Source: a virus (Duplodnaviria; Caudoviricetes). Taken from it: DNA of 53,674 nucleotides. Shown here piece after piece: positions 11,723 through 50,900 of the stretch (position 1 is its first letter; each line of letters opens with the position of its first letter). The stretch is taken from positions 1 to 53,674 of IMG/VR virus record IMGVR_UViG_3300037296_000160. One strand, written 5' to 3'. Under the pieces are notes generated by a model that was given only the letters and a program-made list of their open reading frames with translations, searched no databases and was not told the origin of the DNA. Made by a program: the position numbers and the translations under genes.

Positions 11723-11745
11723 GTGGTTTCGTGGTCGCGTGGTCA
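11723..11745 (-). promoter_or_regulatory. 8-bp-period ACCAC array over the putative parA promoter (candidate parS/operator)
   Basis: GTGGT at 11723, 11731 and 11739; the minus strand reads TTGACC-ACGCG-ACCACGAA-ACCAC (-35-like hexamer). Confidence 0.6.
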
Positions 11746-12591
11746 AGACAATGCTTGTGCCGTTCCCTCGATCATCTGGCTAGGATCATCCCAATGCAGC
11801 AGGTATCCGGTGACGATCCGTTTTTCGACAACAGGCTCGACCTCCACTTGAAACGGGGCCAGCGCGTTGACGTGTTTGACCGCAGGGGCAATAGCGTAGC
11901 GCCAAAGATCATTGGACGACGCCAGCTTGCCGCGCGGCACCCCCAGAACGATATCGCGCATCTTGGCGGGTTTGAACAATTCGGACCTGACGTGCCGCAT
12001 ATTGATCCGCCGCGCCGTGACCTCGAACATGCGGTAAGCATACTTGCTGGGAAGCTGGGCCATTAGGTCCACATCGAGCATCCCCCAAAAGGTGCTGCGA
12101 TACATGACGTCAAAGTAATCGCGATCATAACTATACCGCAAAAAGCCAAAGGGCACGTCGGGCGCAAGACTGTCAGCCTCGTCTGGCCTGACGCTGCCGC
12201 CATGCTTCACGCTGCCAAGTTTCTGAACAGACACGAAGCCTCCGCGCGTATCGCGGACCTGCATGACCGTCTTTTGTAATCGCTTAAGGCTTTTGAATAC
12301 CCGGTCGTTATCGCTGCGCCCGCGTCGCAAGGCACTCATGGGAATCATGAAGTCCGTTAGGCCGCGTTGCACCCTGTCCCGCTGTTCCAGCGCCCCGCGC
12401 AAAAGGCGGTTCTCAATATCGAGGTCTGCCTTCGTCAGCTTATCCAAGCCGTCGATGCTAAAGTCGATCAATTCACCGGGCTTAGCCAAGTTACCCGGCG
12501 GCGTATTCGCCAGCAGAGCGGGTATCATAGACGCCTGCCGTTCTTCACGATCCTGCTTCATCGCGCCAGAGCGAGTTTTGGGGGGGGTCAT
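11743..12591 (-). CDS. Plasmid replication initiator, Rep_3 (winged-helix) family; alternative start ATG 12561
   Basis: SLKRLQKT..., LPSKYAYRMFE..., LGVP.GK.....DL.R.AI.PAV..VN pattern typical of Rep_3 initiators; adjacent iterons. Confidence 0.82.
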   Translation of the reverse strand: MTPPKTRSGAMKQDREERQASMIPALLANTPPGNLAKPGELIDFSIDGLDKLTKADLDIENRLLRGALEQRDRVQRGLTDFMIPMSALRRGRSDNDRVFKSLKRLQKTVMQVRDTRGGFVSVQKLGSVKHGGSVRPDEADSLAPDVPFGFLRYSYDRDYFDVMYRSTFWGMLDVDLMAQLPSKYAYRMFEVTARRINMRHVRSELFKPAKMRDIVLGVPRGKLASSNDLWRYAIAPAVKHVNALAPFQVEVEPVVEKRIVTGYLLHWDDPSQMIEGTAQALS

Positions 12592-12743
12592 ATTGGGCCT
12601 GCTCGCCGTTAAATGTTACTGAGACGCTATCAGCGTGGGCAAAACCACGCAAGCGAAAGGAGAAATTAGCGAAAGCGCCAATTATTCTTGGCGCCCTTGT
12701 AGAACCAGATCAAAAAAAAGCGACTTTGCTTATTTTATCCACA

Positions 12744-12826
12744 CCCCCCCAATAACTCGCTAGAACCCCCCCAAAAACTCGCCCAAACCCCCCCAATAAC
12801 TCGCTGAACCCCCCCCAAAAACTCGC
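12744..12826. repeat. Iteron array: four 22-bp-period repeats CCCCCCCAA(T/A)AACTCGC
   Basis: AA(T/A)AACTCGC begins at 12751, 12773, 12795 and 12817; a shorter inverted copy lies at 12571-12587. Confidence 0.9.
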
Positions 12827-12900
12827 CCAGATCAGCTTTTTTTTATGTATTTTCAATAAGATAACTTTTGGGAATATAGAATATAAGAATATAAGAAACG
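12827..12900. other. AT-rich DNA-unwinding element of the plasmid-type origin
   Basis: Strongly AT-rich tract next to the iterons in an otherwise GC-rich genome. Confidence 0.7.
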
Positions 12901-13037
12901 CCAGAAGGTCACAAAAGGCGCAATGAGGCATGGATCAACGATAAGGCGAACACGCGAAGGAACGGTTCAACTTGAAATGAAACCGAAACCACGCTTAGAA
13001 CGTGTCTAATTGACGCCAGCGGCCACGGGAGTTTGCC

Positions 13038-13259
13038 TTGAGCAAGACAGATACACTGATAGCGCCAGAAGGCGCGAAGGTCAGCGCCCGCAAGGCACCG
13101 ATGCAAACTGTAATGGCGGGGGCAGCTACAGCACGGCCATCACAGCGCAAGGCCATGTTGGACGTGCTTAGAGCAGTGACGCTTAACGACGACCCGCAAA
13201 AGCGGCGAGAATTGTTGTCTGGTCTTTCAGCAAAGCTAATTCCGCATCGTCCAAACTAG
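13038..13259 (+). CDS. Small hypothetical protein
   Basis: GGGAG SD before the TTG start; 73 aa; 3' end overlaps the convergent repressor-like gene. Confidence 0.45.
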   Translation: MSKTDTLIAPEGAKVSARKAPMQTVMAGAATARPSQRKAMLDVLRAVTLNDDPQKRRELLSGLSAKLIPHRPN

Positions 13260-13617
13260 ACGCTAAGTCGAAGATTTCGATCATGTCGCCAATGACCTTA
13301 CGGTCGCCCAGCATTTCCATCCAATGCTGCAATGCGATTGCTTCATCATCGGGCATATCACTGACCGCCTGACAGACCCATCGCCGCGCTTTTGCGCCTT
13401 CCGATTGGTCCGCATCGTCAACGAGGTCGGCCACGCGCAGCCCAAGGCGATCCATCAAAGCAATGCCAAGATTGAATGAGAACCGTGACGTATCGCCGCG
13501 CAGGAAGCGATAAACAGCGTCGGGCGGGCCTTCCACCAGATCGCGTCTGTTAATTTTCTTGTCTGCCGTGCCGTCCAAAACGTGTTGGCGCAATCGGTCT
13601 GAATAATTTTCCGTCAC
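13183..13617 (-). CDS. Putative XRE/HTH repressor (CI-like, no S24 peptidase domain seen)
   Basis: INRRDLVEG..DAVYRFLRGD...FSFNLGIALMDRLGLRVADL (HTH-like); GTG 13617 with AGGAG SD; divergent from terS. Confidence 0.6.
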   Translation of the reverse strand: MTENYSDRLRQHVLDGTADKKINRRDLVEGPPDAVYRFLRGDTSRFSFNLGIALMDRLGLRVADLVDDADQSEGAKARRWVCQAVSDMPDDEAIALQHWMEMLGDRKVIGDMIEIFDLASSLDDAELALLKDQTTILAAFAGRR

Positions 13618-13635
13618 TGGAAACTCCTGTCTCAC

Positions 13636-13847
13636 AGATTTTCATATGTGCAAATAATTGGCCGTATTAAAGTCTTTAAGCGTATATACCTAACTTTAGG
13701 CGGAAATATGGCCGCATTGGTATAGGTTTTCGGCACAAACGTATAATTTAGGCGGCACTGTCAGCAGATGTGCAGATAGTTGATCCTTGCTTTTTACCAT
13801 AATTTGCAGATATGCAGATTGTCGGTAGTCGGCAGGATATTCGACAC
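13636..13847. promoter_or_regulatory. Divergent control region with paired TGCA(G/A)AT octamer repeats
   Basis: AT-rich; motif at 13649, 13763/13771 and 13805/13813; TATAAT at 13742. Confidence 0.55.
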
Positions 13848-14405
13848 ATGGCAAAATCAGCACTCACGCCGAAGCGCAAACGCTTTTGCGAGTTATACGT
13901 CCTCCACGGCAACGCCACCAAAGCGGCCATCGAGGCGGGATACTCTGAGAAAACGGCGCGATCTATCGCAGCCGAAATGAGAGCCATTCCCGAAGTACAG
14001 GCGCACATCGACCTACTCATAGCCGAACAGAGCCAACGCACCGGGATCGACGCCGACAGCGTCCTAAAAGAGATTGCCAAGATCGCCTTTGCGAACATGG
14101 GCGACTTTATGAAGTTTGACGAAGCCGGGAACCTGTCAGGTCTGTCCGTGGACGGCCTGTCAGACGACCAGCTTGCCGCGATCACCGACTTTTCAACCGA
14201 CGTTGTGATTGAGTTTCCAGACGGCAAGGACGGCGATGCGGTCTATGTCCGCAAGACCCGCCTCAAGCTGGGCAACAAGGGCACCGCCCTGCGCGATCTG
14301 GGCAACCACCTTGGCCTATTCAAGAAGGCCGAGGGCGACGACATGGCCAAGCTGTTGCGCGACCTTGTGTCTGATAAAGCCCTGCCCCCCGGTTCGTTGA
14401 ACTGA
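13848..14405 (+). CDS. terS: Terminase small subunit
   Basis: LTPKRKRFCELY...NATKAAIEAGYSEKTA motif; directly upstream of terL. Confidence 0.93.
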   Translation: MAKSALTPKRKRFCELYVLHGNATKAAIEAGYSEKTARSIAAEMRAIPEVQAHIDLLIAEQSQRTGIDADSVLKEIAKIAFANMGDFMKFDEAGNLSGLSVDGLSDDQLAAITDFSTDVVIEFPDGKDGDAVYVRKTRLKLGNKGTALRDLGNHLGLFKKAEGDDMAKLLRDLVSDKALPPGSLN

Positions 14406-16105
14406 TGGATGCGCAAAGGGCCATTGCACATACCACCCGACGCGAGACGCCAAGGGCGCGCGACTTGCGGCGCACCCGCATGGCCCCTGCCCGCGCCATG
14501 AGTAAGCACGACCACCTCCCTTGGCCCGAAAACGCCGTAGACCCCGATTTTGTGCCCACCACCGGGCAGGAATTGCTGACCTGCCTGCGCAGCAAGCGGT
14601 GGCGTCTGTATTCGGGCAGGCTTTACAAGATCATCGTCAAAGACAACGAAGACCCCGATGACGAGGGCGTCGTCCTGCCGTTCGCCCCGTGGGCCGAGCA
14701 GACGCAGTATTTCCTAGAGCCAGCCTTGCGCCGTCTGTTGCTCAAGGCCCGCCAGCTTGGCTTTACGACGGCCATCGCCATCGAAATGCTCGACCACGCG
14801 CTTTGGGAAAGCGATCAGCGGTGCGCCATTGTCGCGCAGTCCAATGAGGCGATGGAGGCTATCTTTCGGGATAAGATCATCTTCGCCTACGACAACCTGC
14901 CCCCAATCGTTCGCGCCATGGTGCCCTACATCAAGCGCACCGAACGCATGATCCAGTTTGAGAACAACTCCAACATTCGCGTTGCCCTGTCCTTCCGGTC
15001 TGGAACGCTGAACCGCCTGCACGTTTCCGAGTTTGGCAAGATCAGCGCCAAGACCCCGAAGCGCGCCAAAGAGATCGTTTCGGGATCGTTCCCCGCAGTC
15101 GTGCCGTCTGGACAGGCAACGATTGAAAGCACCGCCGAGGGCAAGGGCGGCGAGTTTCACAAGATATCAGAGAGAGCGCGCAAAAGGGCCGATGACCCGC
15201 GCCCGCTGGCCGCGAAAGAGTGGAAGTTTATGTTTTTCGCATGGTGGCAGGCAAAGACCAACGAAGTGGACCCCACGGGCGTCATCATCAGCGATGAAGA
15301 CCATGAATACTTCAACGGCCTAGAGGAAGCCTTGGGCATCCTACTGCCGAACCGCAAGCGCGCTTGGTATGTCCTGACCCGCGATGACGAACTTGGCGGC
15401 GATGCGGCGATGATGTGGGCAGAGCATCCATCCACCCCGCAAGAGTCTTGGCAGAAGGATCGCAAAGGCCACTACTACGCCAAACAGATGCTAAGTGCCC
15501 GCGCCAACAAGCACGTCGGCCTGTTTCCCCCGGTCAAAGGCGTCCCGTGCATGGGCGTCTGGGATATCGGCCACACCGACGGCACCGGCCTATTCTTGTT
15601 CCAAGAGGTTCTAGGGCACCATCGCTTTGTCGCCTACATCGAGGGCTGGGAAGAACCCTATGACTACTACACGCGGCGCATGGTGCAGACCGGCCTCGTG
15701 TTGGGCACCCAATACCTGCCGCATGACGCTGACAACCACATCATGCTCAAGGATATCACCACGACGCCGCGCACGATGCTGCAAGAACTCTTGCCAACCG
15801 TCCCGTTCGTCACGGTCCAGCGCATCCCCGAAAAGCCCCTGCAACATGCCCTCGTGCGCAAGCACTTTGAATTGATCCGCTGGCACCAGCCGGGGGAGGG
15901 CATGGAGGACGCCCTCGAACACATCGACAACTATCAGAAGTCTTGGAACACGGTCACGGCCCAATTCAACGACACCCCCCTCAAAAATGAAGCAACCGAG
16001 TGTGCCGACGCGCTGGGCATCTACGCGCAGGTCGTTGAGGCCGGTGCATTTGCGATCACCAGCCGCCGCCGCCCACGCCGCCCCAAAGGAGGCAAAACCC
16101 TATGA
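14405..16105 (+). CDS. terL: Terminase large subunit (start could be 14498)
   Basis: LKARQLGFTT (Walker A), LHVSEFG (Walker B), ESTAEG, WDIG nuclease motif and LPHDA. Confidence 0.95.
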   Translation: MDAQRAIAHTTRRETPRARDLRRTRMAPARAMSKHDHLPWPENAVDPDFVPTTGQELLTCLRSKRWRLYSGRLYKIIVKDNEDPDDEGVVLPFAPWAEQTQYFLEPALRRLLLKARQLGFTTAIAIEMLDHALWESDQRCAIVAQSNEAMEAIFRDKIIFAYDNLPPIVRAMVPYIKRTERMIQFENNSNIRVALSFRSGTLNRLHVSEFGKISAKTPKRAKEIVSGSFPAVVPSGQATIESTAEGKGGEFHKISERARKRADDPRPLAAKEWKFMFFAWWQAKTNEVDPTGVIISDEDHEYFNGLEEALGILLPNRKRAWYVLTRDDELGGDAAMMWAEHPSTPQESWQKDRKGHYYAKQMLSARANKHVGLFPPVKGVPCMGVWDIGHTDGTGLFLFQEVLGHHRFVAYIEGWEEPYDYYTRRMVQTGLVLGTQYLPHDADNHIMLKDITTTPRTMLQELLPTVPFVTVQRIPEKPLQHALVRKHFELIRWHQPGEGMEDALEHIDNYQKSWNTVTAQFNDTPLKNEATECADALGIYAQVVEAGAFAITSRRRPRRPKGGKTL

Positions 16106-16536
16106 GTTATGGAATTGATCTGGAACTGGCCCACGCCGAGTTTGACCGAGGCGACCTGCGCGTCACGATGACATGGCTGTTCGAGGGGGCCGACCGGGCC
16201 ACCCCGCAGCCCTGCATGGTCCTGTCCCGCAGCGTCGAGCGCCAAGACCGCATGAAAATGCCCGTCGTCGTCACACTGGATAACGCTTGGCGTTGGGACC
16301 CCGCGACGTGGATCGAGTTTGACACCATGGAGCGCGCGTCTGGCTTTGCCGACAGCCTTGGTTTCGCGGTGAACAAACAGACCGTCATCACCATCGCGGG
16401 CCTGATTAACGACTACCTCGATGAATTGCTCACCATGCCCGTCGCCCCGCGCGTGAAGCAGACCAAACAAGCCGAAATGACGGTCATCAACCGCAACAGT
16501 GGCGAACAAATGGAAGTGGAGGTTTTGACGCGATGA
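16102..16536 (+). CDS. Hypothetical protein between terL and portal
   Basis: AGGAGG SD, ATGA coupling on both sides, coding-like codon bias. Confidence 0.8.
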   Translation: MSYGIDLELAHAEFDRGDLRVTMTWLFEGADRATPQPCMVLSRSVERQDRMKMPVVVTLDNAWRWDPATWIEFDTMERASGFADSLGFAVNKQTVITIAGLINDYLDELLTMPVAPRVKQTKQAEMTVINRNSGEQMEVEVLTR

Positions 16537-18782: not shown

Positions 18783-18803
18783 TCAGCAAAGAGGAAACAC
18801 CCC

Positions 18804-19652
18804 ATGGCAAACCCGCAGACACACTACGACGATCCGCCCATCAACGCCGAAGATGACGCCGAAATCGTCCTGACCGACGATGACCGCCGCCAGCTTACGC
18901 CAGCGGATATCGAAGCCCTGTCCGCTGTTGTGGATGCAGAGGTCATAGACGAGCAGCCCGCACCCGCGCCTGCCCCTGTGATCGATCAGCAGCCCGCCCC
19001 GGCCCCGGCACCGGCCACGGACTATAGCGCGGATATCGCTGCGCAGGATGCAGCTATGCGCGCGCTACGCGCAAGCTGGGACGACGGCGACGTGTCGGTT
19101 GATGACTACAACCGCCAGCAGGACGAATTGCAGGCCGCGCGCGATGAACTAATCACCGCCCGCGCTTTGCAGGAGGCTAACCCTGCCCCGGCCCAGCCCG
19201 AAGACAACGGCGGCGACCGGCAGGAAGACCCCGCCTTTGCCCTCGATGCGCAGAGATATGCGACCGCCTACCCCGAACTGTTCTCTGACGCGCACTTTAC
19301 CGCGTTCAACGCACTGTTCGAGCAAAACGACGCGCGGGCATCGAGCGCCAACCTCACCACCACGCAGCTACTTGAGAAGACGCACCGCGAGTATGCCGCA
19401 CTGGCCGAGGCACAGCATCGGCCATTGCAGGTATCCCTACCGGGCACCGGAGGCGTTGGTGGCCGCAAGGACGAAGTGCCGCCCAGCATTGCCGACGTGC
19501 CCGCGTCTGGTCTGGACGCGCACCAAGACCGCTTTTCGACCTTGGCAGCCCAGATCGACACGATGGACAACCCTGACGATATCGAGGCCATCTTGGCGAA
19601 GTTGCCCCCTGACCAACGCGATGCGTTCGCGTCATTTGGCGACGACGGATGA
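18804..19652 (+). CDS. Putative scaffolding protein
   Basis: Acidic, Pro/Ala-rich, helical; follows the portal; C-terminal helix (IEAILAKLPPDQRDAF). Confidence 0.65.
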   Translation: MANPQTHYDDPPINAEDDAEIVLTDDDRRQLTPADIEALSAVVDAEVIDEQPAPAPAPVIDQQPAPAPAPATDYSADIAAQDAAMRALRASWDDGDVSVDDYNRQQDELQAARDELITARALQEANPAPAQPEDNGGDRQEDPAFALDAQRYATAYPELFSDAHFTAFNALFEQNDARASSANLTTTQLLEKTHREYAALAEAQHRPLQVSLPGTGGVGGRKDEVPPSIADVPASGLDAHQDRFSTLAAQIDTMDNPDDIEAILAKLPPDQRDAFASFGDDG

Positions 19653-20044
19653 AGGTAAAACTCACCACCTTAACCGTCACTTTGAGCCGCGCAGCCGTGT
19701 TGCAGTTGCGCGGCTGCAACCTTTGCTACCTCGATAAGCAGGACGACGGCGGCACCGTTTTTGCGGTCAATCCGCAGCCCGACGTCGTCGTCAAGCATCA
19801 CCGCAAAGACCCCAAGACGGGCCTGCCCGAAACGGAAGGTGTGATTTTGGACGGCGTCACCATCGCCATTCAGATCGGTGACGCGATCACCACCAGCCAC
19901 GGCACTGGCCTAATCCGCGTCAAGCGGGGCACGTCTGCCCGCCCGACGTTCAAAGTCAGCGCGCCAGAGCATGACCGCATTACCGTCGTGCGCCGGGGGC
20001 AACCCGTCGGTGGACGCGCCAAAGAACTGGAGAACCAGCTATGA
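19649..20044 (+). CDS. Hypothetical beta-rich protein, possibly two tandem CsrA/RsmA-like domains
   Basis: Two ~50-aa halves with CsrA-like strand patterns: LTVTLSRAAVLQL...TVFAVNPQPDVVVKHHR and IAIQIGDAI...RPTFKVSAPEHDRITVVR. The CDS is likely real; the fold call is tentative. Confidence 0.45.
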   Translation: MKVKLTTLTVTLSRAAVLQLRGCNLCYLDKQDDGGTVFAVNPQPDVVVKHHRKDPKTGLPETEGVILDGVTIAIQIGDAITTSHGTGLIRVKRGTSARPTFKVSAPEHDRITVVRRGQPVGGRAKELENQL

Positions 20045-20340
20045 CCAGATTGCGCGAGGGCGTCATCGACCTCAATTTGAACGCGCCGGGGGGCGAGTGC
20101 AGCTATACCGTCAACCGTGCCGCGCTGGCCAAGAAGAACCTGCTAATCGACAAGCGGTATACCCGCGTCGTGCGCCTCAATAGCCCAGAGGAAGTGCAGC
20201 AGGCACTAACGAACGCGCAGCACAGCAAGGTTAGCAAAGACCCTTTGACCAAAGCCGTGGCGCAAAGCCTGACCAAAGCCCTGACGCTGGCCGTCAACGC
20301 CATCCAGAGCCACCAGAAGCATCAGGCGGCGGCGAAATGA
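20041..20340 (+). CDS. Hypothetical protein
   Basis: GGAG SD; coupled to both neighbours. Confidence 0.7.
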   Translation: MTRLREGVIDLNLNAPGGECSYTVNRAALAKKNLLIDKRYTRVVRLNSPEEVQQALTNAQHSKVSKDPLTKAVAQSLTKALTLAVNAIQSHQKHQAAAK

Positions 20341-20690
20341 GCGGTGACGAGCTGACAGACATGGCCGCTGTTCTGACCAAAGAGGGCGGGCCGAAAGGGA
20401 CAAAGAAGATCCCCATGAAGTCCGACCCCGGCGATCAAGAGAACATGGTGAAGATCAATAACGTCGCGGGCGAAGAACTGCGGCAATTCATCGAGCGATA
20501 TGAGCGCCTAGAGGCCGAGAAAAAAGACATAATGGAGGGCATGAAAGAGGTCATGGCCGAAGCCAAAGGCCGTGGCTACAACGTGAAGATACTTCGCAAG
20601 ATCATCGCCCTGCGCAAGCGCGACAAGGATGACTTGGACGAAGAAGAAGCGGTTTTGGAAATGTATATGGCCGCGTTGGGCATGTCCTAG
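20337..20690 (+). CDS. gapR: GapR/DUF2312 family nucleoid-associated DNA-binding protein
   Basis: VAGEELRQFIERYERLEAEKKDI...KEVMAEAKGRGYNVKILRKIIALRK...YMAALGM. Confidence 0.9.
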   Translation: MSGDELTDMAAVLTKEGGPKGTKKIPMKSDPGDQENMVKINNVAGEELRQFIERYERLEAEKKDIMEGMKEVMAEAKGRGYNVKILRKIIALRKRDKDDLDEEEAVLEMYMAALGMS

Positions 20691-21115: not shown

Positions 21116-21141
21116 ACAACGCCGCCCAGGTGCTTACCAAA

Positions 21142-21312: not shown

Positions 21313-21339
21313 CAGATCAAGATGCTGGGTAAAGAGGCA

Positions 21340-21488
21340 CAGCCCGAACAAGCACAAATGCAGATTTAATAAGATGCTTAGAAAAAAAGATTTGCAAATA
21401 CGCTGATTGACGCTAAAACCCTGTGTGTGGTCGAAACCATTAGACCACGATGCGACGAAACGTCTGCACATAGCCACAGGAGGCAACA
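21340..21488 (+). promoter_or_regulatory. Putative promoter of the accessory/early operon
   Basis: AT-rich; TGCAGAT at 21359, TGCAAAT at 21393, TTGACG at 21407, ACCAC-type octamers at 21436-21460. Confidence 0.5.
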
Positions 21489-21782
21489 GTGACCGAGCAG
21501 CAAGTCCCTTCAATGTTCGTAGCCAAGCGCACCATCCAACTGGACGGACGCAAGCTATACGACGTCGCCCTAGTGTTCGTGATCGACAAGGTCATGCCGT
21601 CAGGGATCACGCTTTGCCACCCGTCCACCACCTACATGACCCGCGTAAGCCCGGTTGAGCGCATCGCCCACAACATCACCGGGACAGTCAAGTTTCGCCC
21701 CGACGCGGACGGACGCCTGCGCCAGATCGAGCGCCGCAAGATCGACCCGAACGGCTGGGCACAAGTCAAAACCACAACCTAA
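21489..21782 (+). CDS. Hypothetical protein
   Basis: AGGAGG SD before the GTG start. Confidence 0.75.
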   Translation: MTEQQVPSMFVAKRTIQLDGRKLYDVALVFVIDKVMPSGITLCHPSTTYMTRVSPVERIAHNITGTVKFRPDADGRLRQIERRKIDPNGWAQVKTTT

Positions 21783-21833
21783 TCACCACAGGCGACCGCA
21801 CAGGTCTGCCGACACGCCACAGGAGGCACCCCC

Positions 21834-22417: not shown

Positions 22418-22426
22418 GAAAACCAC

Positions 22427-22942
22427 ATGACCGTGAAACCACCCCTCAAGTTTCTACAATGCGCGCTGGGCTTTCAACACGCCACGGAAGGCATGACCGT
22501 AGCGGACGCACACCGCGTTCGTATCGGCCTGCTGGACCATATGGCAAGCACCACGGGCGCAGTCTTATCCCCTATGCGCGTGGCCGTGCCAAAGGACGTG
22601 CAAAGCCTGCCTGCGTCCATGACGTTCGCCTCTAACGTCGCAGATGACGTAGACACATGGCTTGTGCCAATGCCTGCATGGGCGACGGCGCGCGACAAGT
22701 TTGACGAAATCATGCGCCTTTCCCCGGCTGACATGCCCCCAAACAGCGACCACCTGTCCCTATTGCTCGATACCGTCCTGTTCCGCCTGCGTGAGCCGTC
22801 ACGGGCGGCAACATGGGAGGCGATAGGGGTGCCAGCACCGCGAGGCCGCGCCATGCTGGGTGCCCGCTCTGACAGTGTGACGTGGCCGACCTTCTTCACC
22901 CTGCGCGTCTACGCCTTTGGCGACGAAATGGAGACACGGTAA
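22427..22942 (+). CDS. Hypothetical protein, possible C-terminal HTH-like region
   Basis: AGGA SD; operon-packed. Confidence 0.7.
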   Translation: MTVKPPLKFLQCALGFQHATEGMTVADAHRVRIGLLDHMASTTGAVLSPMRVAVPKDVQSLPASMTFASNVADDVDTWLVPMPAWATARDKFDEIMRLSPADMPPNSDHLSLLLDTVLFRLREPSRAATWEAIGVPAPRGRAMLGARSDSVTWPTFFTLRVYAFGDEMETR

Positions 22943-23714: not shown

Positions 23715-23719
23715 AACCA

Positions 23720-24496
23720 ATGAACGACGAAACCACGAAACCAGTAACCGCATTGCCGCCCGCAGACTTCAACGCCATGGCGCTGGAAGCACTGACAGCC
23801 GCGTGTGACCCGGCCCGCGTCCAAGAGATTGTGGCGAAGAAGATCACCGAGACGGTGGATCGCGCCATTGAGGACGCCACGCGCAGCTACTCGCCCTTTG
23901 GTCAGGCACTAGAGGGGAAGCTGAAAGACGCGCTGTCCATCCAGAACCTCAATCTGCCAAGCTACAACACGATCATCTGTTCCATGGTGCAGAAGGCCGT
24001 AGAGGCCAACGTGTCCGAATTGATAGCGGGCCGCTTGAAGACAGACCTCGATGCTATGCTGGCCGTCGCGCCCAAGACGATCAAGCTGTCAGAGATTGTG
24101 ACCTCGATGCGATCTGAACACGAGGGGAATGACTACGGCCCGGTCGTGACCTGCCACGTTGACCAAGACGGCGGCGATGATGACTTCTGGGGGCGGAACT
24201 GGACGATCTGGCTTGATGACCGCGAACACTACGATTGGGCCAGCCGCAAGGATGCGTCGGTAAGGATCGCCGTGCGCCACGGTATCCGCAAAAACATGGC
24301 CGAAGCTGGGCACCCCGAACACGTCGGCACCATCAGCGCGGTCTATGAAAACGGCGGTGTGCTGGCAGATATCAAGAAGGGCTTCACCAGCCGCAAGAAC
24401 TACGGCTTGGCCAATACCCTGCTGGGCTACTACGCCGCTGAAACCGTTATCGTGGTCGATGAAGACGACGTTGTAACCAGCGTGGGGGATTACTGA
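23720..24496 (+). CDS. Hypothetical phage protein
   Basis: 258 aa, AAGGA SD, coding-like bias. Confidence 0.8.
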   Translation: MNDETTKPVTALPPADFNAMALEALTAACDPARVQEIVAKKITETVDRAIEDATRSYSPFGQALEGKLKDALSIQNLNLPSYNTIICSMVQKAVEANVSELIAGRLKTDLDAMLAVAPKTIKLSEIVTSMRSEHEGNDYGPVVTCHVDQDGGDDDFWGRNWTIWLDDREHYDWASRKDASVRIAVRHGIRKNMAEAGHPEHVGTISAVYENGGVLADIKKGFTSRKNYGLANTLLGYYAAETVIVVDEDDVVTSVGDY

Positions 24497-24822
24497 TGCC
24501 CGCCGCGATCAAGATGAACAGCATGGTCAAAGCTGTAGACCTTGCCACAGGCAAAGAGAGCGAGAGCGTTGTAAGCTGGGGGGTGTTGCCGCCCGCGCCA
24601 GACCGGTGCCAAACCTGCGCCGTGGACCACACGCCAGACCAGCCGCATGACGCGGGTTCGCTTTTCTACCAATTCACGTTCGGCAATGAGCATGGCCGCG
24701 CCCCGACGTGGACCGACGCCATGGCGCATTGCACCGCCGCTGTGCGCGACGAGTGGACCGACAACCTGCGCGCCATGGGCGTGGATATCCCAAAGATGGA
24801 GGGAAACGACGATGCAAGCTGA
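24496..24822 (+). CDS. Hypothetical protein with a putative metal-binding CxxC/H motif
   Basis: CQTCAVDH...PH...YQF....GR.PTW.DAMAHC. Confidence 0.7.
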   Translation: MPAAIKMNSMVKAVDLATGKESESVVSWGVLPPAPDRCQTCAVDHTPDQPHDAGSLFYQFTFGNEHGRAPTWTDAMAHCTAAVRDEWTDNLRAMGVDIPKMEGNDDAS

Positions 24823-25957
24823 CCCGATAGCCCAAGCCACGATAACCACCAAGGACGCGCGCCGCATTGCCGCCGCCATGGGGGGTGTCATCGAGCGCCG
24901 CAACACGATCCCGGTGCTGGGGTGTCTGCGCTTCAAGATCGCCAAGGGCGGTATCAGCGTTACCGGTACAGACCTCGATATACGGATGACCCTGCACATA
25001 GAGGCCGAGACGTCGGGCGAAGCTGTGATCCTGATAGACGCCGCCCGGTTTGCTGGCTTTGCTGGCGCTGGGCTGGGCGACATAGTGCTAAAGGTCATCC
25101 CCCCGGCCAAGGGGTCACAATCGCAGATGAACGTCATCGAGTTATCGAGCGGCGATATCACCCTGCAACTGCTGGACCGCCTGCCACCAGAGGACTTTCC
25201 GACGTTCAACCAGCACTTGAAGGGCGCAAAGGCTTTCCCGGCCACGCAAAGCGACCTGCTGCGCGTCTTCAAGTTGGCAAGCCACTGCATCAGCACCGAG
25301 GAAACCCGCTACTATCTGAACGGCATATACCTGTCCGAGAAGCCAGACGGCACCACCCTGCGCGGCGTGGCGACCGACGGGCACCGCTTGGCCTGCATCG
25401 ACACAGGCGTAGAGACGCAAGGCGGGATGGATAAGACCGAGGGCAAGGGGGCGATCCTGCCCCGCAAGACGGTAGACCTGCTGAAAAGCCTGATGACCGA
25501 GGGGGCCAACGATCCTGTCAACATGCGGCTAACCAACACCCACTGCGCGTTTGTCTGGGAAGGTGTCGAGATAGATACCAAGATGATCGACGGCACCTAC
25601 CCAGACTATACCCGCGTGATCCCCAAGGGGGATGAAACAGGCCGCGTCCAGCTATCCACGGACACGGTGCGCCGGGTTATGAGCATTGGCCGCGCGCTGG
25701 GCGGGGGCACGTCCGTCGCCTGCGCCCTCGATCTGGACGCCAACACCATGACCATCACAGGGATGGAAGGGGAGAAGGTGGCCGCGCCTATGAGCGCAAC
25801 AGGCAAGGGCCGCATAGGCTTCAACTTGAAGTATCTGGCCCAACTGGCGCGCGCCGTCCCGAACATAACGATGCAGGTCATCGAGGCCAACGGTCCCGCG
25901 CGTTGCTTTGGTGACGATCCGCTTGCCATGTTCGTCCTGATGCCGATGCGGGTTTAA
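24812..25957 (+). CDS. dnaN: DNA polymerase III beta sliding-clamp homologue
   Basis: IERRNTIPVL, GTDLDI, ISTEETRYYLNG, VATDGHRLA, ILPRKTV, IDGTYPDY.RVIP, IGFN.KYL, VLMPMRV. Confidence 0.93.
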   Translation: MQADPIAQATITTKDARRIAAAMGGVIERRNTIPVLGCLRFKIAKGGISVTGTDLDIRMTLHIEAETSGEAVILIDAARFAGFAGAGLGDIVLKVIPPAKGSQSQMNVIELSSGDITLQLLDRLPPEDFPTFNQHLKGAKAFPATQSDLLRVFKLASHCISTEETRYYLNGIYLSEKPDGTTLRGVATDGHRLACIDTGVETQGGMDKTEGKGAILPRKTVDLLKSLMTEGANDPVNMRLTNTHCAFVWEGVEIDTKMIDGTYPDYTRVIPKGDETGRVQLSTDTVRRVMSIGRALGGGTSVACALDLDANTMTITGMEGEKVAAPMSATGKGRIGFNLKYLAQLARAVPNITMQVIEANGPARCFGDDPLAMFVLMPMRV

Positions 25958-25959
25958 CG

Positions 25960-27534: not shown

Positions 27535-27620
27535 TTACACAATCTTGCAGTTGTGTAAATACATAATCGCATACGGTTACTGTATGACTTATCTTGACAC
27601 CATAGGTGCGCCGTGCGTAA
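27535..27620. promoter_or_regulatory. Putative res site / resolvase promoter
   Basis: Inverted repeats TTACACAA-N8-TTGTGTAA (27535-58) and CATAC..GTATG (27570-86); TTGACA at 27594. Confidence 0.5.
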
Positions 27621-27628
27621 TGTTCGGC

Positions 27629-28381
27629 ATGATGAATTTACCCGATTTCAGCGGCAACCTTTACGGCTATGCGCGCGTGTCCACCGAGGACCAGAACCTA
27701 AACCTTCAGCTTGACGCCTTACGGGCGGCAGGCATCCCGGATAGCCGCATCTTCACAGAGAAGGTGTCTGGCACGTCTAAGAAGCGGCCCAAGCTGGAAC
27801 TCGTGCGCAAGATCATGCGCGAGGGTGATGCGCTGTGCGTCTGGCGTCTGGACCGCGTAGGGCGGTCTGTGGTGGCCGTGGTAGAGTTTGTCGAAGGTCT
27901 TAGCGCTGACGGCATCTTGTTCCGGTGCCTGACTGAACCAATCGACACTACCACACCGACCGGAAAGCTGATGCTGCACATGATGGCGGCGCTGGCAGAG
28001 TTCGAGCGCAACATGATCGCTCAGCGGACGCGGGCCGGAATGGACGCGGCACGGTCGCGGGGCGTCAAGATGGGGCCGAAACACCGCATCTTGGATTGTC
28101 CCAAGCGGCTGGCGCGCTTCATTGAGTTGTGGGCCGATGGGCGTATCCCGTCCGGCGACATGAGCGCAAATGATGTGTGGGCCGATCTGAATACAGTGCC
28201 GTCCAAGCTGCCAGAGATGAAGGCACAAAGCAGCTATAGCAACTGGAAGGCACGTCTATTCGCGGGGTTTGAAGCATCGCTAGATCAGGCGATTAGCAAG
28301 GGCGACGACAAGGCCGCGAAGGTAAAGCCGCTGTTCCTGCAATGGCGCAAAGGTATCCTAGAGCAGAAAGGCAAAAGCTAA
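27629..28381 (+). CDS. Small serine recombinase (resolvase/invertase family)
   Basis: YGYARVSTEDQ, RPKL, GD.L.VWRLDR.GRS, IDTTTPTGKLM..MMAALAEFER; too short for a large serine integrase. Confidence 0.93.
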   Translation: MMNLPDFSGNLYGYARVSTEDQNLNLQLDALRAAGIPDSRIFTEKVSGTSKKRPKLELVRKIMREGDALCVWRLDRVGRSVVAVVEFVEGLSADGILFRCLTEPIDTTTPTGKLMLHMMAALAEFERNMIAQRTRAGMDAARSRGVKMGPKHRILDCPKRLARFIELWADGRIPSGDMSANDVWADLNTVPSKLPEMKAQSSYSNWKARLFAGFEASLDQAISKGDDKAAKVKPLFLQWRKGILEQKGKS

Positions 28382-39197: not shown

Positions 39198-39206
39198 GAG
39201 TGCCCC

Positions 39207-39611: not shown

Positions 39612-40017
39612 TTTTGGGCGAAACCTCGATGCACTCAAGCGCGAACTTGATGACGCTATCAACGCAGAGCGCGACCGGCGCATCAGGGCCGGGTTTTACT
39701 ACGGTCAAAGCCTGTTCGATTGGGATGACGCCACCAAGGCCCGCGTGACAGGTGCAGCGGCACTGGCGGGCTTTGCAATCGCCAAGGGGGCACAAGAGGG
39801 CGACTATTACTGGGCGCGGCCAGATCAGCCATTTGTCTGGGTGTTGCAGGACAACACCTACCTGTTCCTAGATGCGCAGGGCATGTTCGCCGTGTCCCAA
39901 ACAGCCGCATCCCACGAGAGCGACCACGTCTTTGCCGGGATCAGCCTCAAGGTCATGGACCCGCCGCCAGCAGATATCACCGACGACGCATATTGGCCCA
40001 CGGTTGCCCCGGTATGA
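39604..40017 (+). CDS. DUF4376-like tail-fibre-associated protein
   Basis: INAERDRRI..GF.Y....FD.D, W...DN...LDA..M, DITDD.YWP. Confidence 0.7.
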   Translation: MADFGRNLDALKRELDDAINAERDRRIRAGFYYGQSLFDWDDATKARVTGAAALAGFAIAKGAQEGDYYWARPDQPFVWVLQDNTYLFLDAQGMFAVSQTAASHESDHVFAGISLKVMDPPPADITDDAYWPTVAPV

Positions 40018-40301
40018 ACGGCGTCGGCCCCTACTGGTTCCCCGCGTGGCTGCGCGCGTGGCTGACCCGGCAATTCAACCGCGTGTTCGATGAAGCGTCA
40101 CCCGTGCGCCACGACGAAAGCTATGCGCGCGGATACCCTGCGCGCGACGTGTGCGACCGGGGCATGTTGGCCGCGATGCTGCGCGACACCTCCCGTATGA
40201 CGTCCACCGGGCGAATGTTTGCCGCTACCGTGGTTTCGTGGTTATTCTGGGGCTTCAACCGGCTGTTTGGTTGGGTCAGCTACAACAGGGGCAACCGATG
40301 A
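40014..40301 (+). CDS. Small hypothetical protein (HD..Y motif, DUF1353/PLA2-like)
   Basis: NGVGP...HDESY..G...R..CDR; ATGA coupling. Confidence 0.6.
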   Translation: MNGVGPYWFPAWLRAWLTRQFNRVFDEASPVRHDESYARGYPARDVCDRGMLAAMLRDTSRMTSTGRMFAATVVSWLFWGFNRLFGWVSYNRGNR

Positions 40302-40732
40302 TCCTTTCCCGCGACAACCAAGCGCACATGCTCGAATGGGCTGCGATTGAAAAGGGCGATGCGTGGTGGCCCGACGCGACCGCGTTTGGAATATACCACG
40401 AAACCACAAAGCCACATAACCTTGTGGCCGTGATCGTGCTGGAGAAGATTGGGCGGCACACCGCTGACAGTCACATCAAAAGCAACGGCAAGCGGCATTG
40501 GGCCAGCAGGCGCATCATCAAGGGGCTTTACACCATCGCGTTCGACGCAATGGGCCTTAACCGCCTTGAAGCGCGGATTGGGGCCACGAACGCCGACAGC
40601 CTGCGTCTATGCGGCAAGCTGGGCTACAAGGTCGAAGGTTTATTAAAGGATGGTCACGGACCCGGCAAAGATGCTATTCTTTGTGCTGTCACGCGCAAAG
40701 ATTGCCGCTGGTTCGACTTACCCGCAGGCTAA
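40298..40732 (+). CDS. GNAT-family acetyltransferase-like morphogenesis protein
   Basis: AF..MGL.RL...I...N..SL.L..KLGY..EG.L; sits just before the ejection genes, as in podoviruses. Confidence 0.8.
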   Translation: MILSRDNQAHMLEWAAIEKGDAWWPDATAFGIYHETTKPHNLVAVIVLEKIGRHTADSHIKSNGKRHWASRRIIKGLYTIAFDAMGLNRLEARIGATNADSLRLCGKLGYKVEGLLKDGHGPGKDAILCAVTRKDCRWFDLPAG

Positions 40733-40751
40733 TCAGTAAAGGACGCATGAC

Positions 40752-42859: not shown

Positions 42860-42860
42860 C

Positions 42861-44834: not shown

Positions 44835-44940
44835 GGCGCTTTTCAGGCGGTGCGCCGCCTGATACCCTAGCCCCATCATAACACAGACCTACAGCGCAGG
44901 ACGTGCTGGCGTCTCACCTTGCCCCAAGGAGAGTGCCGTC

Positions 44941-47900
44941 ATGGCCATTAAACCGCGTTCGTTGTCCAACGTGTTCAGCCAAAGCCCCATGCAAGAGGCT
45001 TTGACCACTAAACCGAAAACCCAAAAGACCACGTCGCCCCTCAAGGGATTTGAGGGCATGGCAAAGCAAACGGGCGTCCCGGTCAACATCCTCATGGCCG
45101 AGGCAGAGCGCGCAGGCACCGATGACCCCCGCATGATCGCCACCCGCGCCGCAGCGTGGCAATCGCGCCTGACGTCTGGCGCACAAGTGCCCGATATCGC
45201 CGCCGAACTGGTGCCCGAAGACACGACCACGTTCCTTAACCGCGCCATCGAGATTGACCGCGCCACCTATGGCAGCGAAATCGAGGTTCCCGACGCGGCC
45301 CCGGCCACCCCGGCAAAGGGTGAAGCTGGCGGCATCGAGAACACGGCGCGCACCGTTGGCGGGGCGATGACACGTTTTGGTGCAAGCACCCTCAAGGGCA
45401 TCGGGATTGCAACCGACACCGTGGCCGACGTTGCCACCCTTGGGCAATCGCGCCGCGACATTGACCAGTTTCGTCGCGATGCGGGCTTGCGGGACAAAGA
45501 CGCACCGGGGCCGCAGCGCGGCGACTTCTTCACCGACGCCATGGATATCGCAGCCGAACCCCTGCGCGATGCAGCCGACGGCATCGAGGCGGGCCGCAGC
45601 AGCGATCTAAACGAGGCCATTGCAGCAACGTCGCTAGAGGGCGAACTGTTCGACCCGCGCACTTGGGAAGTATCCGAGGACGCCACCTTGCGCGGTTTCG
45701 CGCACAAAGGTCTGGCCGTTCTGGGCGACCTGCTACCCATCGTTGGTGCCGCCGTTGTCACCCGCAGCCCCGCCGTTGGCGGTGTGCTGGGCGGTCTGTC
45801 CGCTGGCGGTGCCGCTGGACAGGATGCGCGCGACCGCGTGTATGCCGCAGCAGAGGAACGCGACGAAAGCGGCGTGTCCGCGCTTGAGAAAAGCGACAAG
45901 TTTCAAGAACTGGTAGAGCGCGGCCTATCCACGGATGAAGCCACCGAACAGCTTGCAGTCAATGCCGAGCGTTGGGCCGGACAGGTTGCAGGCGTCATTG
46001 GCGGCGCAGGCGGCGTCGCCACCACTAAGATCATGGCCCCCCTTGAAGGCAAGGCGCTGACAAACAGCGTTGCAGGCCGCGTCGGTCTGGCAGCGGTAGA
46101 AGAAGGCGGGCAGGAAGTCGCGGAAGGCGTGGGGCAGCGCATGGCGACCAACGCCGCGACCGGCCTTGAAGACAACGTCATGGACGGCACCCTAGAGGAG
46201 TTTGCGCTTGGCGGCGTGGCTGGCGGTGCCCTTGGCGGCGCATCGACTGCCTTTGACCGGGCCACCCCGCCCGCAGAGCCTACGCCCCCTGCCCTGCCCG
46301 CGCCCGATCTGGTGACGCCGCCCCCGTCCGCATACGGGCCAGACGGCAACCTGCTACCCGAAAACACCGCACCCCCTGCGCGCCCCAAAGGCCGCTTGGA
46401 GGCGATGATGGACGCGACCATGCCGCCTATGGCCATGCCCGCGCCGACCCTGCCTACACCCGCTGAAACACCCGCCCCAGCCGCAAACCCTGCCCCCCAG
46501 GATTTAATGGACGACGGCGCAGTGCTTGAAGACCTGCCGCCCCGCGACTTTGTGGGCGAACGGCAGGCGGCACAGGCGCGCTTGGCCCAACTGGACGCCA
46601 ACGACCGCCGCAATGGCGCGACCACCGAGAGCCTTGAGGCCCGCAACAAGGTCCGCGCCGAACTGGCAGAACTGCCGGTTGATACTGTGCCCATGGGCAC
46701 CTTTGACGCAGGCACCGACCCAGACAGCGGCAAAATCATCACCGCGACCGTGGCCGACGCAGGACCATTTGACTACGAAACCACATACCCATCCCCTGAT
46801 ATCGACCTCTACACCGCAGCCGCGCGCGCGGGCATGATCCTGCCCACCACGCCGCAGGAAACGGCCATGTTCGTTGAACGGGGCTTGGGAGCGTTGACGG
46901 ATGCTGTTTTGGATCAGCGCGCCGCAAAGGCCGGAAGCCCAAAGGCAAAGCGGGCGCAAAAAGCGATTGACGGCATCGTGGCAGACCTTGCTGCGATCTA
47001 TAAGCCCGAAGACGTGGCCGACATGCAGGCCGCAGTCACAGGCTACGCCGACAGCATCGAGGCCAGCGCACAGCCCGCCCCGGCAGACGTCCCGGCCACA
47101 GACGCACCGGCAGAGACACCCGCCCCGTCCGAGGCTGACCTGCGCGCACAGATCGCCGCCGCGACCAATGCCGCGCTGGATGAAGCTGACGCCGCCGAGG
47201 ACGCCGCCAAGCCGTCCAAGCCAATGCCCGCGACCGCTATGCCGCCATCGAGCGTGACGAACAGCGTCAAGATGCTGGCCGACGCTAACTTTTTCCCCAA
47301 GGATGGATCGCCCAACACCTATGAGCGCACCGTGGGCGGCAAAGGCCAGCGTATCGAGCGCGTCAAAGACGGCTGGCGTCTGATGGAGGACGGCAAGGTC
47401 ATCGCCAAAGCCAAGGGCGAAGACGGCATCCTGTCCCTGTCCAACTTCCTGCAAGAGCCAGATGCGGCTATGCCGCCGACCGCCATGCCGCCCGCAACCC
47501 TGCCAGCGGCCAAGCCAGACGCCAAACCTGCGCCTATGCCCGCAACGTCCATGCCGCCGCCCACCGTGCAGCCAGACGCCAAGCCCAAGGAAGATATCAA
47601 CGACCTTATGGCCGACGCGCGCAAACGCCGCGCGGATCGCACTGCGCAGGTGGCGGACCTGTCCAAGACAGATGACCCCGTCCGCATGACGAACAAGGCG
47701 GGCGATTTGGCCGTTCTGGTATCCCCCGCAGCCGACCGCCCCGGCAAATGGCGCGCAACCTACATGGGCGCGGACAAGAAGCCGTCGGGCCATGTTGACG
47801 CGGAGACGAAAGCCGAAGCCCTTGAGCGCGCCTTTGAGGACGGGTTTACCGTGGCCGACCAATCGACCACTAAACCACAAGACGACGCGACCACGGACAA

Positions 47901-50900
47901 GGCAGCAATGCCCGCAACCGCCATGCCGCCCCCGACCGTCAACGCACCCGACCCGAACCCCACCGACGGCCAGAAGGAAGCAGGCAACTACCGCAAGAAG
48001 CACGTCCGCTGGAATGGGCTGGATATCAGCATCGAAACCGCCAAGGGCCAAGAGCGCACCGGCACCGGGCCAGACGGCACACGCTGGGCCGTGACCATGC
48101 CCGCCGACTATGGCGACATCAAAGGCACCACAGGCGCAGACGGCGACCCGCTCGATATCTACATGGGCGAACTGGAAGGCAGCGACACCGTTGTCATCGT
48201 CAACCAAGTGGACGAGCGCACAGGCGCGTTTGACGAACACAAGATCATCGTGGGCACGGGCAGCACCGCCGCCGCGCTGCGCATGTATGAGGAAGGTTTC
48301 AGCGACGGCAAAGGCAAGAGCCGTATCGGATCGTATAGCACGACGTCGCAGGCAGGCTTGAAGGCGTGGATTGAAACCGCCGACCACACCAAGCCCACCG
48401 AACCCGTCAAAGCAAAACCAAAAGCCGACGAAACCGCGAAACCACAAGACGACGCGACCACGGACGACGCGGACGCGGACGGCAGCGATGACACCGCCGC
48501 ACCCAAGGGCGACAAGATTGAAGACTTTGGCGAGAAGATTGGCGGCGCGCGCAAGGACAAGGCGCGGCGCATGGCCGAAGACCTCGCCACTGATATCGAC
48601 GCGGCCAGCATGACCATGACCGAGGCGTTCCCCGTGCCCGACTATGAGGCACTTGCAGCCAGCGGTGTCCCGCACAACAGCCTTGCCATGATCGCAGCCC
48701 TGCGCGCCGCAATCCCGCGCAAGACCCGGCGCAACCGCCGTGGCTGGGCCACAGACGTAGAGGCATCGCGCAAGATCGTCGCGGCCATCGTCGCAGGCGA
48801 GTTGGAAGGCGATACCGTATCTGCGCAAGCCAACGCACAGGTCAGCAACAGCGGGGGATGGAGCGGGCTTGGCGAAGGCACCATTGAAGCCTTTCAGAAA
48901 CTACCGACCTCGATGCTGCACGAAGCGTCTACGCTGGCCGTGGTGCGCGCGACCTTTGGCCGGTCTGACGACGGCAAGACCAACACCATCGTCAGCTACA
49001 CCGTTGGGCCATTGAGCAAATGGAGCGGTTTGCGCGTCACCACCACGGACGACGCTGCAAAGGAGCTGATGCGCCTTGTCGCGCGCGCCCGCGATGACCG
49101 GGCCAGCAAGGCAGGCACCGGGGGCCGCAAGCCGGTCAAGCTGGGCGTCTACAAGCGCACAAGCGACGAGACGTGGTTTGTTGGTTTCAAGGTTTCGGAC
49201 GTCCTGCCGCTATCGCCTAACTTTGAAAGCGCCGCCGCAGCGCGCACCTACATGAACGACAACACCGAGGCGCTGCAAAAGGCCGCTGATGACCTGCGCG
49301 ACGGGCCGCGAGAGCGCACCGACCGCAACCGCAAGCGCAAGGGGCCAGCACACCGGGAGGGCGACGTTACCCCCGAAATGTTCACGGATGCTTTCGGTTT
49401 CCGTGGTGTAGAGTTTGGCAACTGGAACAACGCCAAGGACCGCCAGAACAGCCTAAACGACGCCTACGACGCATTGACCGACCTTGCGGGCTTGCTGGAC
49501 CTGCCAACCAAAGCCATGTCGCTGGACGGCACCCTTGGCCTTGCGTTCGGCGCGCGCGGCACCGGGGGCAAGAACCCCGCCGCAGCCCACTATGAGCCTG
49601 ACAAGATCGTCATCAACCTGACTAAGCGGTCTGGCGCAGGATCGCTGGCCCACGAATGGTTTCATGCAATAGACCACCACCTTGCGCGCATCGACGCCGC
49701 AGAAGGTGGATCGTCCGCAGCCCTGACCGGGGCGACGGCGCGCAATCGCAGCGAATACATGTCTGACCGTCGGTCATCGGGCGCTGGGCGCACCAAGGAC
49801 GCAGCCGAGGCGTTCAACGCCCTGCGCAAAGCCCTGACCGCCGATCACCCGTGGTTCAAGCGCAGCAAGGAAGCCGACAAGGGCCGCTCAAAGCCCTACT
49901 TTGCGACCACCATCGAACTGGCTGCGCGTTCGTTTGAGAAATACGTCATCGACCGCCTGACAACCCGCGACATGGTCAACGACTACCTTGCCAACATCGA
50001 CGGCATGAGCGGCGCATATCCATCCACCCGCGAAATGGCGAACACGGATATCCGCACCGCATGGGATGCTGCGCTGGCGTCGATCACCACCACCTTGGAC
50101 GCAGGCACCGACAACGTGCCGACCTTGCCCAATGCAGACACAAGCCGCCTGTATGAAGGGCCAGAGGCGGGCGAAATCTGGGAAAGCCCCGAAGGCCGCA
50201 AGAAGATCGAGAGCCGCGACGGCGATACCTTCTACATCAATTCGCCCGACGGCAGCACCGAAGTCATGTCAGGGGCCGAGGTAGACGAACAGATTGCCGC
50301 CGACCGGGCGGCGTTGGAAGCCGCCACGCAGGCAAAGAAGGAAGCGCGCACCGAGGCGTATCAGGATCAAACCGCCCGCAACACGGAATGGGAGGATCGC
50401 GCCCGCACCGAGATTGCCAAGTTTGAGGCCGACGCCAAGCGCAAACCCGGCGCAGTGCAATCCAAGCTGTTCGGCAAGACCTACAACTTCCGCGACTATG
50501 GTATGCTGTCACGCGGCGGCATGATGATCGCGCGACTAGATGAAGGCTGGCGCGTCAGCGAGGGCGGCGACCGCCGATTGTCCCGCAACCTGCGCGGACC
50601 CAAAGGCGAAGTCTACAGCGCGGACACATGGACCAAGGGCGGTCTGGATTTTGCCGAATGGTATGGCAATATCCTCGATGCGCGCGCCAAGTCCAAGGTA
50701 GCACCGGCAAAGCCCAAGGCGAAGGCAAAGACCGAGGACGAACTGCGCGCCGAAATCAACGCCGCCACGGTCGCGGCGCTGGATGAAGCCGACGCCGCAG
50801 AAGGGCAGGGGACCGACACCACAAAACCACAAGACCAACAGGCCACGGGACCACGCACGGCAGGTCAAGCCGCAGCGAGCGCGGCAGGCAACCTTGGCAC

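Follow-up and report, generated by a model that had tools for sequence, protein, structure and literature searches.

The 53,674-nt virus record IMGVR_UViG_3300037296_000160 (Duplodnaviria; Caudoviricetes), the whole of which we call the window, contains ACCAC-type units repeated at 8-bp spacing in 13 places, amounting to about 44 units over 53 kb. Sequence comparisons suggest that these arrays are probably binding sites for the presumed type Ib partition adaptor encoded by the element itself, a 79-amino-acid (79-aa) ParG-like protein, probably of the ribbon-helix-helix (RHH) type. The arrays may serve as centromere, as operators, or as both. The element that carries them is a Bcep22-like podophage with a circular genome of about 53.2 kb, and its lifestyle is probably that of a plasmid.

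A preliminary reading of the DNA made from its letters alone (the sequence-only reading) had noted that a period of 8 is out of phase with codons and had taken this as a sign of selection at the DNA level. That argument is upheld: an excess is seen at period 8 alone, and shuffles that preserve the codons always fall short of the number observed. Three-unit segments with at least 13 of 15 core matches number 14, in eight clusters, at period 8, and zero or one at each other period between 5 and 15. The excess also withstands comparison with codon-shuffled controls. Synonymous-codon shuffles of 48 genes yield a mean of 2.8 such segments and a maximum of 7 (300 shuffles), and codon-permutation shuffles a mean of 1.15 and a maximum of 4 (300 shuffles); none of either set attains the observed number, even though every shuffle count includes one segment from the non-coding array upstream of parA, which was left unshuffled. 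When all 5-mers were screened at periods 5-12, ACCAC at period 8 ranked joint top with eight places, and the other high scorers all fell at codon-phase periods (6, 9, 12) or were shifted readings of the ACCAC unit.

The 44 units define a consensus. A purine precedes the core in 42 of them and an A stands two bases before the core in 28; position by position, the core is matched 41 (A), 44 (C), 40 (C), 43 (A) and 33 (C) times. The commonest 8-bp unit is GAAACCAC, with the core ACCAC following a purine. Given the encoded peptide, the choice of codons favours the motif in six arrays (P 0.0001-0.012 by synonymous sampling, with codons drawn from each gene's own usage); this array-by-array test is post hoc, and the genome-wide shuffle is its unbiased version.

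All ten sites listed in the sequence-only reading are present where it placed them, although their quality varies: those at 11723/31/39, 40230/38, 40395/403/411, 47858-94, 48417-61 and 50818-54 are strong, and those at 21436-60, 23724-47, 46772-92 and 45004-32 are weaker. Three further arrays had escaped it (22422/22438, 49173-49193 on the minus strand, and 6978-6998 in mixed orientation). The best-scoring array of the window, and the only perfect one, adjoins parA (11716-11743, minus strand). Its three perfect ACCAC units (11723/31/39; 15 of 15 matches) and an inverted ACCAA at 11716 extend from the last base of the rep stop codon to 4 nt before the first ATG of parA, an arrangement of tandem repeats beside the par operon that is characteristic of type Ib systems.

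Six arrays lie within the first 6 kb of a giant plus-strand gene for a polyvalent protein of 4,929 aa (5' part at 44941-53674, continuing at 3-6482 through an overlap of the window ends), whose product contains InPase, LPD5, LPD1, Sbno-like helicase and LPD39 domains. Three of the six occupy linkers, two of them flanking the InPase domain: five units before it (47858-47894, plus strand; P 0.0065), six units, five of them good, after it (48417-48461, plus strand; P 0.0001), and five units around residue 1960 (50818-50854, plus strand; P 0.0001). The earlier statement that the arrays of this gene sit in low-complexity linkers is accurate for these three and fails for the three units at 49173-49193 (P 0.003), which lie inside the LPD5 domain on the strand opposite to the gene. 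Three units around residue 610 (plus strand; P 0.005) form an array whose true extent is 46764-46784 rather than 46772-92. Near the 5' end of the gene, a weak array (45004-45032, plus strand) has two perfect units at a distance of 24 bp, with poor units between them.

The remaining arrays are distributed over the rest of the genome. A four-unit array (23716-23744, plus strand; P 0.012) straddles the ATG at 23720 and encodes M-N-D-E-T-T-K-P; its good units run from 23716 to 23740, whereas the unit formerly assigned to 23747 is one base out of register. An intergenic array (21427-21465, plus strand), 24 nt upstream of the GTG at 21489, comprises an inverted perfect unit, ACCAT, ACCAC and two degenerate units; among the previously listed units, those at 21436 and 21444 are good and the others are not, and the inverted perfect unit at 21427 is an addition. 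The array across the ATG at 22427 (22422-22442, plus strand) has two perfect units at a distance of 16 bp and ACCGT in the middle. Two perfect units at 40230-40242 lie on the minus strand, opposite to the gene 39993-40301 (P 0.04). The array in an acyltransferase gene (40298-40732) consists of ACCAC, ACCAC and GCCAC with an inverted GCCAC at 40424 (40395-40428, plus strand); the first three of the four units originally described here stand, but the fourth, at 40419, matches at only three of five positions. Finally, three units in mixed orientation occupy the last codons of a holin-like gene (6978-6998), 21 nt before the start codon at 7019, and repeat the inner part of the parA array at 15 of 16 nt.

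Altogether, nine of the 13 arrays lie fully within genes, one is fully intergenic (21427) and three cross gene boundaries. The genome is 95% coding, which would explain why the long arrays of the giant gene lie in coding DNA. An RNA-level signal was rejected because the orientations of the arrays are mixed, and terminase pac repeats were rejected because arrays are absent in or near terS (13812-14405).

The presumed reader of the arrays belongs to a plasmid module on the minus strand that encodes a Rep3-like initiator, a short ParA and the 79-aa protein. ParA (11035-11712; 225 aa from the first ATG, or 216 aa in the database gene call, which starts at 11685) possesses a KGGVGKS P-loop and is of the short deviant-Walker-A type lacking an N-terminal DNA-binding domain, as expected of type Ib. 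It aligns with positions 1-201 of the 203 of the NCBIfam ParA_partition model (E 3.5e-22), at 79 bits and therefore below the 180-bit equivalog cut-off, and its Pfam matches to CbiA, AAA_31, MipZ and ParA all exceed their cut-offs. The gene for the 79-aa protein (10790-11029) begins 5 nt after parA and is followed in the same operon by two small open reading frames (ORFs) without assigned function (10536-10787 and 10270-10488).

The assignment of the 79-aa protein comes from a comparison of profiles. An alignment of this protein with ten partner proteins of related ParAs (A2) was compared with an alignment of 16 other partners (A3), three of which score above the Pfam ParG cut-off, and the two profiles match over 77 columns with 97.3% probability (E 2e-11). 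By this comparison the protein is ParG-like, but it is not filed in Pfam ParG: alone it gives no match to PF09274 at E ≤ 0.01, and no PHROG or NCBIfam match. An AlphaFold monomer model (mean predicted local distance difference test score 63) shows a disordered segment at residues 1-35, an extended one at 36-42 and helices at 43-55 and 61-76, which is the order of elements in an RHH fold. A Foldseek search with this model returned nothing at E ≤ 0.001, and VIA-align against about 48,000 chains returned a best Z of 2.9; both searches are uninformative, the second because the query is a 45-residue half-domain modelled as a monomer.

The initiator gene (11743-12591, minus strand; Rep3_C, E 1e-4, above cut-off) has an origin region of its own at 12570-12826, with four iterons of 22 bp upstream of rep (12739-12826), a further one in inverted orientation across the start of rep (12570-12588) that is likely autoregulatory, and a DnaA-box-like 9-mer (12734-12742). 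The iterons are rich in a C run, and an A/T-rich stretch follows at 12835-12900. Since these iterons are a different 22-bp repeat without ACCAC phasing, the ACCAC arrays were rejected as Rep iterons and Rep is excluded as the reader of the arrays.

Comparison with related loci indicates that 8-bp arrays at parA characterise the family to which this ParA belongs. We sampled 160 loci encoding ParA relatives (27-48% identity), in equal numbers (80 each) from viral contigs and genomes, and scored an upstream array where at least three exact 5-mers stood in register within 220 nt upstream of parA. Phased repeats were found at 63 of the 150 non-redundant loci; the best period was solely 8 in 38 of them, 11 in 12 and another value in 4, with ties in 9. 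The repeated word varies between lineages. At 35 of 48 loci the lineage's own word recurs in further 8-bp arrays beyond the parA promoter, in at least three places at 12 of these loci, most clearly at L030, L039, L040 and L060. These extra places total 83 in 596 kb at period 8, compared to 4.25 at periods 6, 7, 9 and 10, and the window itself has 7 extra places against 0.25 at other periods. A control in which motifs were swapped between lineages is inflated, many lineage motifs being shifted readings of related units, and the other-period control is more trustworthy. Dispersal of the cognate array is thus common in the family.

In most of these loci a small ORF directly follows parA and encodes a protein with a proline- and arginine-rich tail and an RHH-like C-terminus. 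Among 40 such partner proteins scanned, 18 match an RHH-type Pfam family, four of them above cut-off, and three of these four match ParG (L015, L061 and L081). Because the 8-bp phasing is constant whereas the motif varies by lineage along with the par cassette, a cassette-encoded reader fits the pattern and a host factor does not.

Two further arrangements appear among the relatives. At L090-L095, L111, L123, L127, L128, L133 and L159 a second cognate array is found just past the RHH gene, about 0.9 kb downstream of the parA start; unlike these loci with their bracketed par operons, the window has no array downstream of its RHH gene. The 12 of 63 loci with 11-bp phased repeats upstream of parA (L014, L103, L140-L142, L146, L076-L080 and L152) suggest a second binding geometry within the ParA family. 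A separate scan of viral contigs for three perfect ACCAC units yielded at least 120 loci; those listed encode no ParA or RHH relative and were rejected as chance matches.

By analogy with ParG and Omega, one dimer of the RHH protein would occupy each 8-bp unit, and adjacent dimers would bind cooperatively along two to six units, direct or inverted, so that each array would become coated with the protein. Autoregulatory repression of the par operon would take place at the array next to parA, which would also serve as a partition site and nucleate the partition complex. The remaining dozen arrays would load this protein at other positions around the circle. The short arrays at the heads of genes (21427, 22422, 23716 and 6978) would most likely be operators that tie phage genes to the plasmid state, and the long arrays of five to six units in the giant gene would most likely be additional sites for the partition complex. 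These long arrays are the best candidates for extra centromeres, and are the only ones besides the parA and 23716 arrays to have at least four good contiguous units.

The extra arrays in the relatives are mostly intergenic (55 of 79, compared to 14.8 expected, on crude gene calls) and at L039 and L060 stop a few bases before start codons, a pattern that points to operators. It is what one would expect if the RHH protein were a global repressor, the dispersed arrays had no role in partition and the centromere lay at the parA array, if anywhere, an explanation that we regard as rather unlikely. Four arrays of the window do lie within 40 nt of an annotated gene start, where 1.3 are expected (P 0.03), a modest association; the 21427 array occupies the sole sizeable intergenic gap of the early region; and Omega controls several promoters via the same repeats (PMC9499535). 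The longest arrays, however, lie deep in the giant gene, kilobases from annotated starts. No consensus promoter coincides with them, or with the parA and 21427 arrays, in a scan that is uninformative, its matches being fewer than in shuffles and the single one that overlaps an array (22422) lying within noise. Moreover, it is at least four contiguous repeats that activate ParA in the Omega system (PMC9499535), and the TP228 operator boxes double as a centromere (PMC3130281). The sequence-only reading had named the arrays parS sites of the RHH protein. Its link to this protein is supported by the 8-bp arrays of the family, the recurring motif and the ParG profile, but the dispersed arrays are candidate centromeres at most; in relatives the extra arrays are mostly intergenic and often adjoin start codons, which points to operators.

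A peptide could also underlie part of the signal. The giant protein contains the sequence T-T-K-P in three places and two other proteins contain it in one place each, and the giant-gene arrays, perhaps with two N-terminal ones, might be by-products of a linker or processing peptide, T-T-K-P-Q-D, leaving only the parA array as a DNA site. We consider this origin distinctly unlikely. In its favour, T-T-K-P occurs once in 27 of 119 other homologues of the giant protein and in 22 of these it closes the InPase domain, there in the context W..G-D-T-T-K-P (homologues P0134-P0238), which may be a domain-boundary or processing motif; the mean of 2.8 segments kept by synonymous shuffles is also on this side, although one of these is the unshuffled promoter array, as is the fact that two giant-gene arrays are duplicates of each other. 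The codons, in contrast, are tuned to the motif. At the homologous conserved position of this phage (48383-48400, residues about 1150-1160) the peptide has drifted to A-D-H-T-K-P and is written AAG CCC, whereas the linker copies of T-T-K-P-Q-D use AAA CCA CAA, the very codons that 8-bp phasing requires. Whenever an array has three or more units, one of its frames reads T-T-x-P, and the DNA itself thus accounts for the presence of T-T-K-P in three proteins. Periods 6, 9 and 12 lack ACCAC arrays of this kind, and five arrays (6978, 21427, 40230, 49173 and 11716) encode unrelated peptides or none; those at 40230 and 49173 on the non-coding strand, at 6978 in mixed orientation and at 21427 between genes are not peptide motifs by reason of strand, orientation or placement. 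Taken together, the data read as DNA-level selection that acts on, or was seeded by, a tolerated linker peptide.

If the arrays are bound by a protein, that protein might be another than the RHH protein, either a host factor or a small product of the element such as that of 10536-10787 or 10270-10488, the two ORFs that share its operon. The RHH protein is tied to the motif by sequence comparison, which leaves some room for such a reader, yet we judge one very unlikely. As described above, the motif changes with the par cassette, which speaks for a reader encoded there; an 8-bp unit used in either orientation is the pattern of ParG (PMC3130281); and neither the iterons nor the repeats beside a putative repressor gene (13642-13822) are ACCAC arrays, their sequences being different.

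Several observations weigh against recognition of the arrays by the RHH protein, or against a partition role for them, and moderate our confidence. The similarity of units between loci rises with the identity of both the small protein and ParA, so that the RHH protein is not singled out; its match to Pfam Antitox_RHH (16.8 bits) is below the 27.2-bit cut-off, and a profile search against sequences of solved structures returned nothing relevant. Three arrays are not individually significant in synonymous sampling (45004, P 0.10; 40395, P 0.22; 22438, P 0.09), and those at 47858 and 48417 are not independent, because they share a 27-nt duplicate. The association of arrays with gene starts in the window is modest. 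The relatives' arrays are mostly intergenic and nine of 13 here are fully coding, and the analogy is therefore weaker for precisely the unusual arrays. Lastly, the conservation of T-T-K-P among homologues implies that protein-level constraint may have seeded or helped the giant-gene arrays, part of whose signal may be protein-driven. The RHH protein of the par operon nonetheless remains the probable reader of the arrays.

A bolder proposal, which we offer tentatively and hold to be doubtful, is that a partition and operator code is written into coding DNA. In such a design the DNA for interdomain linkers (T-T-K-P-Q-D) of the polyvalent protein, which would be injected, would double as the longest loading arrays for the RHH protein, the main centromere would lie within a gene, and a single small protein would couple plasmid inheritance to the silencing of phage genes. 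The conserved G-D-T-T-K-P at the domain boundary may be the seed from which the DNA sites were recruited. Module duplication appears to have shaped the linkers of the giant gene: a segment of about 25 residues (L-R-A-x-I-x-A-A-T-x-A-A-L-D-E-A-D-A-A-E) occurs twice, at residues about 745-790 and 1935-1960 (window positions about 47170-47310 and 50740-50820), the second copy directly before the 50818 array.

The genome itself merits description. The window ends overlap by 426 bp (1-426 versus 53249-53674; 422 identical positions and 4 mismatches). The giant reading frame runs off both ends of the window and continues in phase through this overlap; the record, classed as linear at its source, therefore represents a circle of about 53,248 bp. 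The portal is P22-type, and its best relatives, at about 45% identity, are Bcep22-like podophages, including Erwinia phages Pavtok and PEp14, Burkholderia phage Bcep22, and Ralstonia and Pseudomonas phages. Further phage genes encode small and large terminase subunits, a capsid protein, an SU10-type adaptor, internal virion proteins, tail fibre proteins, a holin and a CHAP endolysin. A plasmid module is unusual in a phage of this type, since the Bcep22-like phage JC1, whose integration site has been characterised, is judged likely not to be a phagemid (PMC9144972).

Elsewhere the element encodes its own DNA polymerase III beta-clamp homologue (24647-25957), a GapR-like DNA-binding protein (20337-20690), a DHH phosphoesterase (8912-10273) and a 278-aa serine recombinase (27545-28381) that might resolve multimers in the plasmid state instead of acting as an integrase. 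In the region 13183-13830, a minus-strand ORF of 150 aa without family match (13183-13635) adjoins a low-GC gap that contains a 17-nt repeat in three copies (13642, 13764 and 13806) and a 21-nt inverted pair; the ORF could encode a repressor whose operators would separate it from the terminase genes. Close relatives of the element were not found by megablast and blastn in phage and plasmid collections, nor with ParA and the portal as single queries against viral contigs, and a metagenome scan gave one weak partial match. ParA found only two matches in 401 genomes of one Rhodobacterales family, both 48% identical. The nearest ParA, P0003, is 66% identical and may lie on the same 26,507-nt contig as P0153, a homologue of the giant protein.

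Among known systems, the plasmid-prophage N15 has several centromere sites scattered in a phage genome. Its partition system is of type Ia, with a large helix-turn-helix SopB and single palindromic sites rather than RHH repeat arrays. The appeal to N15 in the sequence-only reading is thus an analogy with a different kind of partition protein. Closer parallels are found in two RHH systems. In TP228, boxes and spacers of 4 bp each alternate, every box takes up one ParG dimer whichever way it is oriented, and ParG acts at both its operator and the centromere parH (PMC3130281). Like the ParF-ParG system of TP228 with its OF operator and parH, the present module encodes a short Walker ParA and, next to it, a small protein that is probably of the RHH type and whose N-terminal tail is predicted to be disordered, and has units of 8-bp period, direct and inverted, immediately before the par operon. 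The core here is ACCAC and the spacers are G/A-rich, against an ACTC core and AT-rich spacers in TP228; the 20 boxes of TP228 form one block, whereas about 44 units are spread here over 13 places in 53 kb, mostly within genes; and the 79-aa protein does not by itself reach the Pfam ParG model.

The Delta-Omega system of pSM19035 (Inc18), in which an RHH-type ParB binds short non-palindromic repeats, likewise has several dispersed arrays. Six of them overlap the copS, delta and omega promoters; they act as parS and as operators of several promoters, and array length matters, at least four contiguous repeats being needed for full activation of ParA (PMC9499535). The Omega unit is a 7-bp heptad and the present unit is 8 bp; ACCAC arrays at period 7 number zero, so this is not an Omega-type heptad system. 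Omega sites, on a Firmicute plasmid, are all at promoters, whereas those of this phage are mostly in coding sequence, with four of 13 near gene starts.

Among the best-ranked matches of a literature search, in so far as their text was available, no description of such dispersed arrays in phage-plasmids was found. What is new here is the GC-rich unit, the Bcep22-like host element of alphaproteobacterial type and, above all, the placement of most arrays within genes with visible codon tuning. Phage-plasmids need both plasmid-like inheritance and prophage-like silencing; if one 79-aa protein indeed reads a dozen arrays, the two tasks would be linked, as they are by Omega on Inc18 plasmids. Arrays within reading frames would further mean that a 95%-coding genome can bear a dense DNA-level code atop its protein code, and the family-wide pattern suggests that mobile elements commonly have dispersed arrays of the ParG type. 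By analogy with these two systems, the present one resembles ParG and parH in the geometry of its units and Omega in their dispersal.

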